Shown here: piece after piece, positions 59,336 to 60,095 of the stretch
How the letters are laid out: each line of letters begins with the position of its first letter
How positions within the stretch are numbered: position 1 is the stretch's first letter
NCBI RefSeq assembly: GCF_050920415.1
Contig: NZ_CP169309.1
Reading direction: 5' to 3' (one strand)
Origin: Escherichia coli
GTDB lineage: Bacteria; Pseudomonadota; Gammaproteobacteria; Enterobacterales; Enterobacteriaceae
Length of the DNA stretch: 64,000 bases
Position numbers and translations under genes: made by a program
The notes under the pieces: generated by a model
Seen by the model: only the letters and a program-made list of their open reading frames with translations
Databases searched by the model: none
Told to the model about the DNA's origin: nothing

Positions 59336-59393
59336 ATCATGGGATTCTGTGGTAAACTTCTCGCGATTTTGTGAAATCCTGGTTGAGGTATCT

Positions 59394-60095
59394 CTGAACA
59401 CACCGGCACAGCTCTCTTTGCCACTTTATCTTCCTGACGACGAAACCTTTGCAAGTTTCTGGCCGGGGGATAACTCCTCTTTACTGGCCGCGCTGCAAAA
59501 CGTGCTGCGTCAGGAACATAGCGGTTACATCTATCTCTGGGCACGCGAAGGCGCGGGGCGCAGCCATCTGCTGCACGCGGCTTGCGCGGAATTGTCGCAG
59601 CGTGGCGATGCGGTGGGCTATGTCCCGCTGGATAAACGCACCTGGTTTGTTCCGGAAGTGCTCGACGGTATGGAGCATTTGTCGCTGGTCTGTATCGACA
59701 ACATTGAGTGTATTGCAGGCGATGAGTTGTGGGAGATGGCGATTTTCGATCTCTACAATCGAATTCTGGAATCGGGTAAAACACGGTTGTTAATCACCGG
59801 CGATCGTCCACCGCGGCAGTTGAATCTGGGATTACCGGATCTCGCGTCGCGACTCGACTGGGGGCAGATCTACAAATTGCAGCCTCTTTCTGATGAAGAT
59901 AAGTTGCAGGCGCTACAGTTACGCGCGCGTTTGCGTGGTTTTGAACTGCCGGAAGATGTGGGGCGTTTCTTGCTGAAGCGGCTCGACAGAGAGATGCGCA
60001 CGTTATTTATGACGTTGGATCAGTTGGATCGTGCGTCGATTACCGCGCAACGTAAGCTGACCATTCCGTTTGTGAAAGAGATTCTGAAACTGTAG
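59394..60095 (+). CDS. hda: DnaA regulatory inactivator Hda (CUG initiation)
   Basis: 233 aa from CTG at 59394 ([20 protein letters not shown]...); ORF track offers GTG at 59349. Confidence 0.85.

Follow-up and report, generated by a model that had tools for sequence, protein, structure and literature searches.

The window, a 64,000-nt stretch of Escherichia coli DNA (contig NZ_CP169309.1), contains the hda gene within the same upp-uraA-hda-arsC(yfgD)-bepA neighbourhood that surrounds its counterpart (b2496) in E. coli K-12. On the + strand, a GTG at 59349-59351 and a CTG at 59394-59396 share one reading frame that ends at a TAG stop codon at 60093-60095; translation yields 248 aa from the GTG and 233 aa from the CTG. 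The nearest in-frame stop upstream of the GTG is a TAA at 59286, and three further in-frame near-cognate codons (ATC 59376, CTG 59379 and TTG 59418) lie between the GTG and codon 40. A mechanical list of open reading frames enters the gene as 59349..60095 (+, 248 aa, GTG start), as a preliminary description of this DNA had reported. That description placed the start at CTG 59394 instead, giving a 233-aa Hda beginning with MNTPAQLSL; the coordinates, the codons, the length and the N-terminal peptide all proved correct on direct reading and translation of the window.

A 901-nt segment around hda is 100% identical to one RefSeq E. coli chromosome. The hda segment is found in 5,425 of the 5,426 complete E. 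coli genomes; it is flanked there by uraA and arsC/yfgD and annotated as "hda: DnaA inactivator Hda". The hda CDS of the identical RefSeq record (positions 1645-2346 of the locus, offset 57,749) corresponds to window positions 59394-60095, being 702 nt long. The same CTG-start, 702-nt CDS is present in "clone D i2" and in MG1655 b2496 (NP_416991.2; PGAP protein WP_001307333.1), and hda itself does not differ between the window and MG1655. A 30-nt query taken between the GTG and the Shine-Dalgarno (SD) sequence (59359-59388) has no annotated feature under it in the RefSeq records listed. The 702-nt CDS and the lack of a feature over this interval indicate that the CTG start is the accepted annotation. 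The EcoGene 3.0 statement on this gene likewise gives a CTG start, with Su'etsugu 2008 (J Biol Chem 283:36118) as its source. Through the literature cited in that statement, EcoGene 3.0 also provides second-hand wet-lab evidence for a native Hda of 233 aa. Kim et al. 2017 (PMC5397184) number the protein 1-233.

Several other features of the neighbourhood and of the genome records deserve mention. The longest-ORF list over-extends upp (GTG 57271, 57271-57924, 217 aa, against 57298-57924, 627 nt and 208 aa in RefSeq) and uraA (TTG 57968, 57968-59299, 443 aa, against 58010-59299 and 429 aa). Downstream of hda, the gene on the - strand at 60201-60560 is named inconsistently: PGAP calls it "arsC, arsenate reductase (glutaredoxin)", and the curated record of MG1655 has "yfgD, putative oxidoreductase". 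The REP-containing spacer between hda and arsC (60096-60200) is the only difference from MG1655, being 105 nt long here and 137 nt in both MG1655 and "clone D i2". The alignment with most E. coli genomes ends within this spacer, at about window position 60119. An Rfam search (E-value ≤ 1) of the leader and flanks of hda gave sub-threshold matches only: a REP-derived naRNA4 match at 60137-60207, on both strands, and a spurious match to 5.8S. The spacer difference is probably due to a polymorphic REP element. The hda region has 5,428 matching places in the E. coli genomes, one of them on a plasmid-typed record, and a single genome out of 5,426 lacks any match. Position 1 of the chromosome of E. 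coli O15:H18 strain ST69 (NZ_CP102488.1) is the hda CTG itself (window 59394); this record was probably rotated on hda, as a DnaA homologue, instead of on dnaA.

Alignment to curated Hda bears out the identification made in the preliminary description. The 233-aa form passes the NCBIfam equivalog model NF005982 with 474.8 bits (cutoff 268) and TIGR03420 with 281.7 bits (cutoff 194.8). It matches exactly the 233 native residues of PDB 5X06_E, the Hda chain of the E. coli Hda-clamp complex, in which a 20-residue tag is followed by MNTPAQ. [quoted passage not shown] In the numbering of Kim et al. 2017, the beta-clamp-binding motif, a hexapeptide of the form QL[SP]LPL near the N-terminus, is represented here by 6-QLSLPL-11, encoded at 59409..59426 (+), and residue 153, an arginine encoded at 59850..59852 (+), is the box VII arginine finger.

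The same architecture is seen in other members of the family. Caulobacter crescentus HdaA carries its N-terminal clamp-binding hexapeptide (4-QFKLPL-9) within the first ten residues or so, followed by the AAA+ domain and the box VII arginine, and Shewanella amazonensis Hda (PDB 3BOS) aligns with E. coli Hda at an E-value of 2 × 10-73. Both of these proteins are annotated with canonical starts, in contrast to the CTG of E. coli hda. In 125 full-length proteins taken as representatives of 50%-identity clusters, the glutamine of the clamp motif has a median position of 5 (interquartile range 4-8). The motif lies no later than position 13 in 94% of the representatives and at position 21 or later in only 1.6%. 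This distribution bears on the possibility that the longest ORF is correct, that is, that Hda has 248 residues starting at GTG 59349 and that the CTG encodes just another leucine within the protein. In favour of this, the start would be a canonical one, the frame is open for the 15 codons in question, and Hda forms of 248, 241 and 235 aa still occur in many database entries (a cluster of the 248-aa form, P0002, has 3510 member sequences). The longer protein would, however, have its clamp motif at residues 21-26, where so few representatives have it, and RefSeq, EcoGene, the PDB construct and the native 233-aa form reported in the literature that EcoGene 3.0 cites all agree on the CTG.

The ribosome binding site points in the same direction. 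A Shine-Dalgarno sequence GAGGT is located at 59385..59389 (+), its GAGG core ending 5 nt before the CTG. The predicted anti-SD pairing of the 20 nt upstream of CTG 59394 is -6.9 kcal/mol, within the top 4.2% of all 20-mers of the window. The corresponding pairing before GTG 59349 is -4.0 kcal/mol (22nd percentile), too weak to provide the 248-aa form with a usable SD. The predicted leader fold also contains a weak GAG/CUC hairpin that would sequester the SD, of marginal energy. The other in-frame near-cognates (CTG 59379, ATC 59376 and TTG 59418) are also conceivable start codons. An anti-SD pairing check revealed an SD sequence in front of none of them (+0.3 to -1.7 kcal/mol). CTG 59379 and ATC 59376 are inside an indel-rich, unconserved stretch, and TTG 59418 lies within the QLSLPL codons, so that initiation there would delete the clamp-binding site. 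A start at any of these three codons is extremely improbable.

The start region was compared across Enterobacterales using a set of 87 sequences: the window, 80 species representatives of Enterobacteriaceae and six species of other families of the order, six families in all. The 80 Enterobacteriaceae loci encode Hda proteins 92-100% identical, and their start regions are all distinct from one another. Every one of them has CTG as the counterpart of codon 59394, preceded by GAGG at a distance of 5 nt (79 species) or 6 nt (one species). CTG is equally found in the six other-family species (Yersinia, Erwinia, Hafnia, Dickeya, Xenorhabdus and Proteus), all of which read GAG GTG CTT CTG AAY. Throughout the 87 sequences the anti-SD pairing of the CTG ranges from -6.3 to -8.6 kcal/mol and is stronger than that of any alternative start, and no canonical in-frame upstream start in the set has an SD equal to that of the CTG.

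The region upstream of the CTG is not conserved as coding sequence. An in-frame stop codon occurs fewer than 15 codons before the CTG in 60 of the 80 Enterobacteriaceae loci, and 46 loci have no canonical in-frame upstream start whatsoever. Only seven have a canonical start in an open frame at -15, where the window has its GTG. In a MAFFT alignment of the 87 sequences, mean identity at the first, second and third codon positions downstream of the CTG is 0.92, 0.99 and 0.75, respectively, a classic coding pattern. The values for 59349-59384 are 0.77, 0.64 and 0.75, which carry no coding signature. The upstream 45 nt also contain frame-shifting indels with lengths that are not multiples of three. 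Given the absence of codon periodicity, the indels and the weak anti-SD pairing, the 45 nt added by the longest-ORF call (59349..59393, +; the GTG and 14 codons) are best described as a wrongly included non-coding stretch made up of the probable promoter and the 5' leader of hda. An extension that is not conserved as coding sequence argues against a 248-residue Hda, which we consider highly improbable.

The reference annotation, the literature, the comparative sequence data and the family architecture, four independent lines, thus agree with the preliminary description in placing initiation of hda at CUG. We conclude with high confidence that the translation start is CUG 59394 and that translation does not begin at GTG 59349. 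The gene should be annotated as 59394..60095 (+), 233 codons plus TAG, product DnaA inactivator Hda, on the basis of the RefSeq mapping, the NF005982 match and the identity to PDB 5X06_E. Its start codon at 59394..59396 (+), invariant in the Enterobacterales sample and given as CTG in EcoGene 3.0, is read by the initiator tRNA as methionine. The preliminary description had called this a known annotation pitfall, not a novelty, and rightly so: the CTG start in E. coli is already established and already stands in RefSeq. The additions made here are confirmatory, consisting of the order-wide invariance of the CTG and its SD, the probable promoter in which the GTG lies, and the observation that the 235-aa annotations begin within the SD.

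The uraA stop codon occupies 59297-59299 and is followed by a predicted terminator-like hairpin at 59306..59330 (+), with an 11-bp stem, a 3-nt loop and a poor U-tail (UUCAAAC); the predicted folding energy of 59300-59345 is -21 kcal/mol. Directly downstream of this hairpin, the alignment displays an island of conservation amid variable DNA around TGGTAAACT (59350..59358, +), which overlaps GTG 59349. The pattern TGnTA[A/G/C]ACT is present in all 80 Enterobacteriaceae, 33-39 nt upstream of the CTG, and variants of it occur in the six other-family species. TGGTAAACT (TGn followed by TAAACT) fits the extended -10 pattern of sigma-70 promoters, with a TG one base upstream of the hexamer, an A at hexamer position 2 and a T at position 6. 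A candidate -35 hexamer, TTCAAA, is located 18 nt upstream of the -10 (59329..59334, +) and overlaps the tail of the uraA terminator. Its TT (59329-59330) is at least 98% conserved, but the hexamer is a weak match to TTGACA (4/6), below the threshold of our promoter scan. A consensus scan for promoters and terminators accordingly made no call on the + strand in front of hda, the TGGTAAACT site being missed because of its weak -35. The extended -10 assignment therefore draws on conservation instead of the scan, and a literature search returned no transcription start site or ribosome-profiling evidence for hda.

From its conservation and its fit to the pattern, TGGTAAACT is probably the extended -10 element of the hda promoter. 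An hda-specific transcript would then begin near 59365, downstream of GTG 59349, and this GTG may be absent from the hda transcript. The overlap of the GTG with a conserved -10-like element is a further argument against its use as the start of a 248-aa protein. Two other candidate features of the leader were rejected. A DnaA box over the hda promoter (the reverse complement of TGTGGTAAA) was considered, but the relaxed consensus TTWTNCACA has seven matches in the window, a count no higher than expected by chance, and none is near hda. A small, 11-codon ORF that begins out of frame at ATG 59340 lacks conservation in other species.

The CTG could also be the main start while a minor 248-aa isoform is made from GTG 59349 on read-through transcripts of uraA, in E. 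coli and its closest relatives. Some read-through is plausible in view of the poor U-tail of the uraA terminator. In this strain, as in nearly all other E. coli, the frame runs uninterrupted from the GTG to the CTG, so that the sequence alone permits a minor long product. The leader segment is nearly invariant within the species (5399 of 5426 genomes), as is the SD-CTG segment (5422 of 5426), and such near-invariance does not discriminate between the two starts. An extra base near 59378 is present in 81 of the 87 aligned sequences, so that the E. coli GTG and CTG share a frame through a lineage-specific accident, a 1-nt indel. This shared frame is already broken in an Escherichia locus (L007; GTDB "E. 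coli" SCPM-O-B-8794), in which a 1-nt insertion about 20 nt before the CTG (AAATCCCTGG versus AAATCCTGG) puts the GTG at -15 out of frame and brings a different GTG, at -8, into frame. It is likewise broken in Salmonella (L005). Together with the weak SD at the GTG, this makes dual initiation very unlikely, and since there is no selective signature, any long isoform would amount to translational noise. Initiation at CUG 59394 is the reading we retain.

A different N-terminal extension affects the other families of the order. In the Yersinia, Erwinia, Hafnia, Dickeya, Xenorhabdus and Proteus species, Hda is annotated as a protein of 235 aa (P0016, P0028, P0031, P0082, P0084 and P0115) beginning at the GTG within the SD sequence GAGGTG, two codons upstream of the CTG (positions 401-409 of loci L084-L089). 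When a minimum spacer of 3 nt is imposed, the anti-SD pairing of this SD-internal GTG is only +1.5 to -3.1 kcal/mol, against -6.9 to -8.6 kcal/mol for the CTG of the same species. Newer NCBI entries for these species are 233-aa proteins beginning with MNTPAQ. The 235-aa annotation is probably a systematic mis-start, and the length of the NF005982 profile, 235 positions, mirrors it. In the sample examined the CTG start is confined to Enterobacterales. The three nearest homologues fetched from outside the order (52-64% identity; a Ferrimonas-like sequence, Corallincola and one metagenome contig) have annotated, unverified starts of GTG, GTG and TTG, none of them ATG (L090 169-171, L091 301-303 and L092 301-303). 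These three unverified starts hint at weak start codons as a possible general feature of hda.

Translation of hda proceeds as follows. The well-spaced GAGGU sequence, 5 nt upstream, positions the 30S subunit, and initiator fMet-tRNA reads the near-cognate CUG 59394, the product being a protein of 233 residues (Met-Asn-Thr-Pro...) with the clamp-binding QLSLPL at residues 6-11. GTG 59349 lies in non-coding DNA just downstream of the uraA terminator, overlapping the probable hda promoter TGGTAAACT, and the hda-specific mRNA would begin at about 59365, downstream of this GTG. The combination of a conserved, strong SD and a weak CUG would hold Hda at a very low cellular level. Reporter measurements in E. 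coli put initiation from CUG at about 1-2% of that from AUG (Hecht et al., bioRxiv 10.1101/063800), and the combination most likely limits the level of Hda because of this low efficiency. The cell is estimated to contain about 50 Hda dimers, and chromosomal levels of the protein appear limiting (PMC3905854); according to the title of Banack et al. 2005, its overexpression inhibits multiplication. Taking these separate measurements of initiation rate and of protein level together, we infer that the invariant strong SD and the weak CUG most likely constitute a translation signal of fixed, low output on a regulator that is sensitive to dosage. The GTG, GTG and TTG starts of the outgroups go in the same direction, although these are only three sequences with unverified starts.

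Similar combinations of a near-cognate start codon and a normal SD occur elsewhere in E. coli. The infC gene starts at AUU, and this weak codon acts as the sensor of IF3 autoregulation. We know of no start-codon feedback of the infC type for hda. The second confirmed case of a CTG start according to EcoGene 3.0, yfjD, also has a normal SD. Gene callers that allow only ATG, GTG and TTG misplace the starts of these genes.

Combining these elements, we can tentatively imagine, as a possibility rather short of probable, that the CUG and its invariant SD form a selected, order-wide dosage device keeping Hda at about 100 molecules per cell. Since IF3 discriminates against non-canonical starts, such a device could couple the synthesis of Hda, and hence the inactivation of DnaA-ATP, to the condition of the translation machinery. 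In the same scheme GTG 59349 would be part of the extended -10 element and the 235-aa forms would be mis-starts.

The main value of the present analysis lies in annotation hygiene. A longest-ORF caller, or one limited to ATG, GTG and TTG, places 15 spurious residues before the clamp motif of Hda and puts the residue numbering off by 15, and the longest-ORF call would in addition hide a promoter inside a "coding" region. For the biology of Enterobacterales, the strict conservation of a start codon of about 1-2% efficiency on a dosage-sensitive replication regulator provides an example of how the choice of a start codon may set the level of expression.
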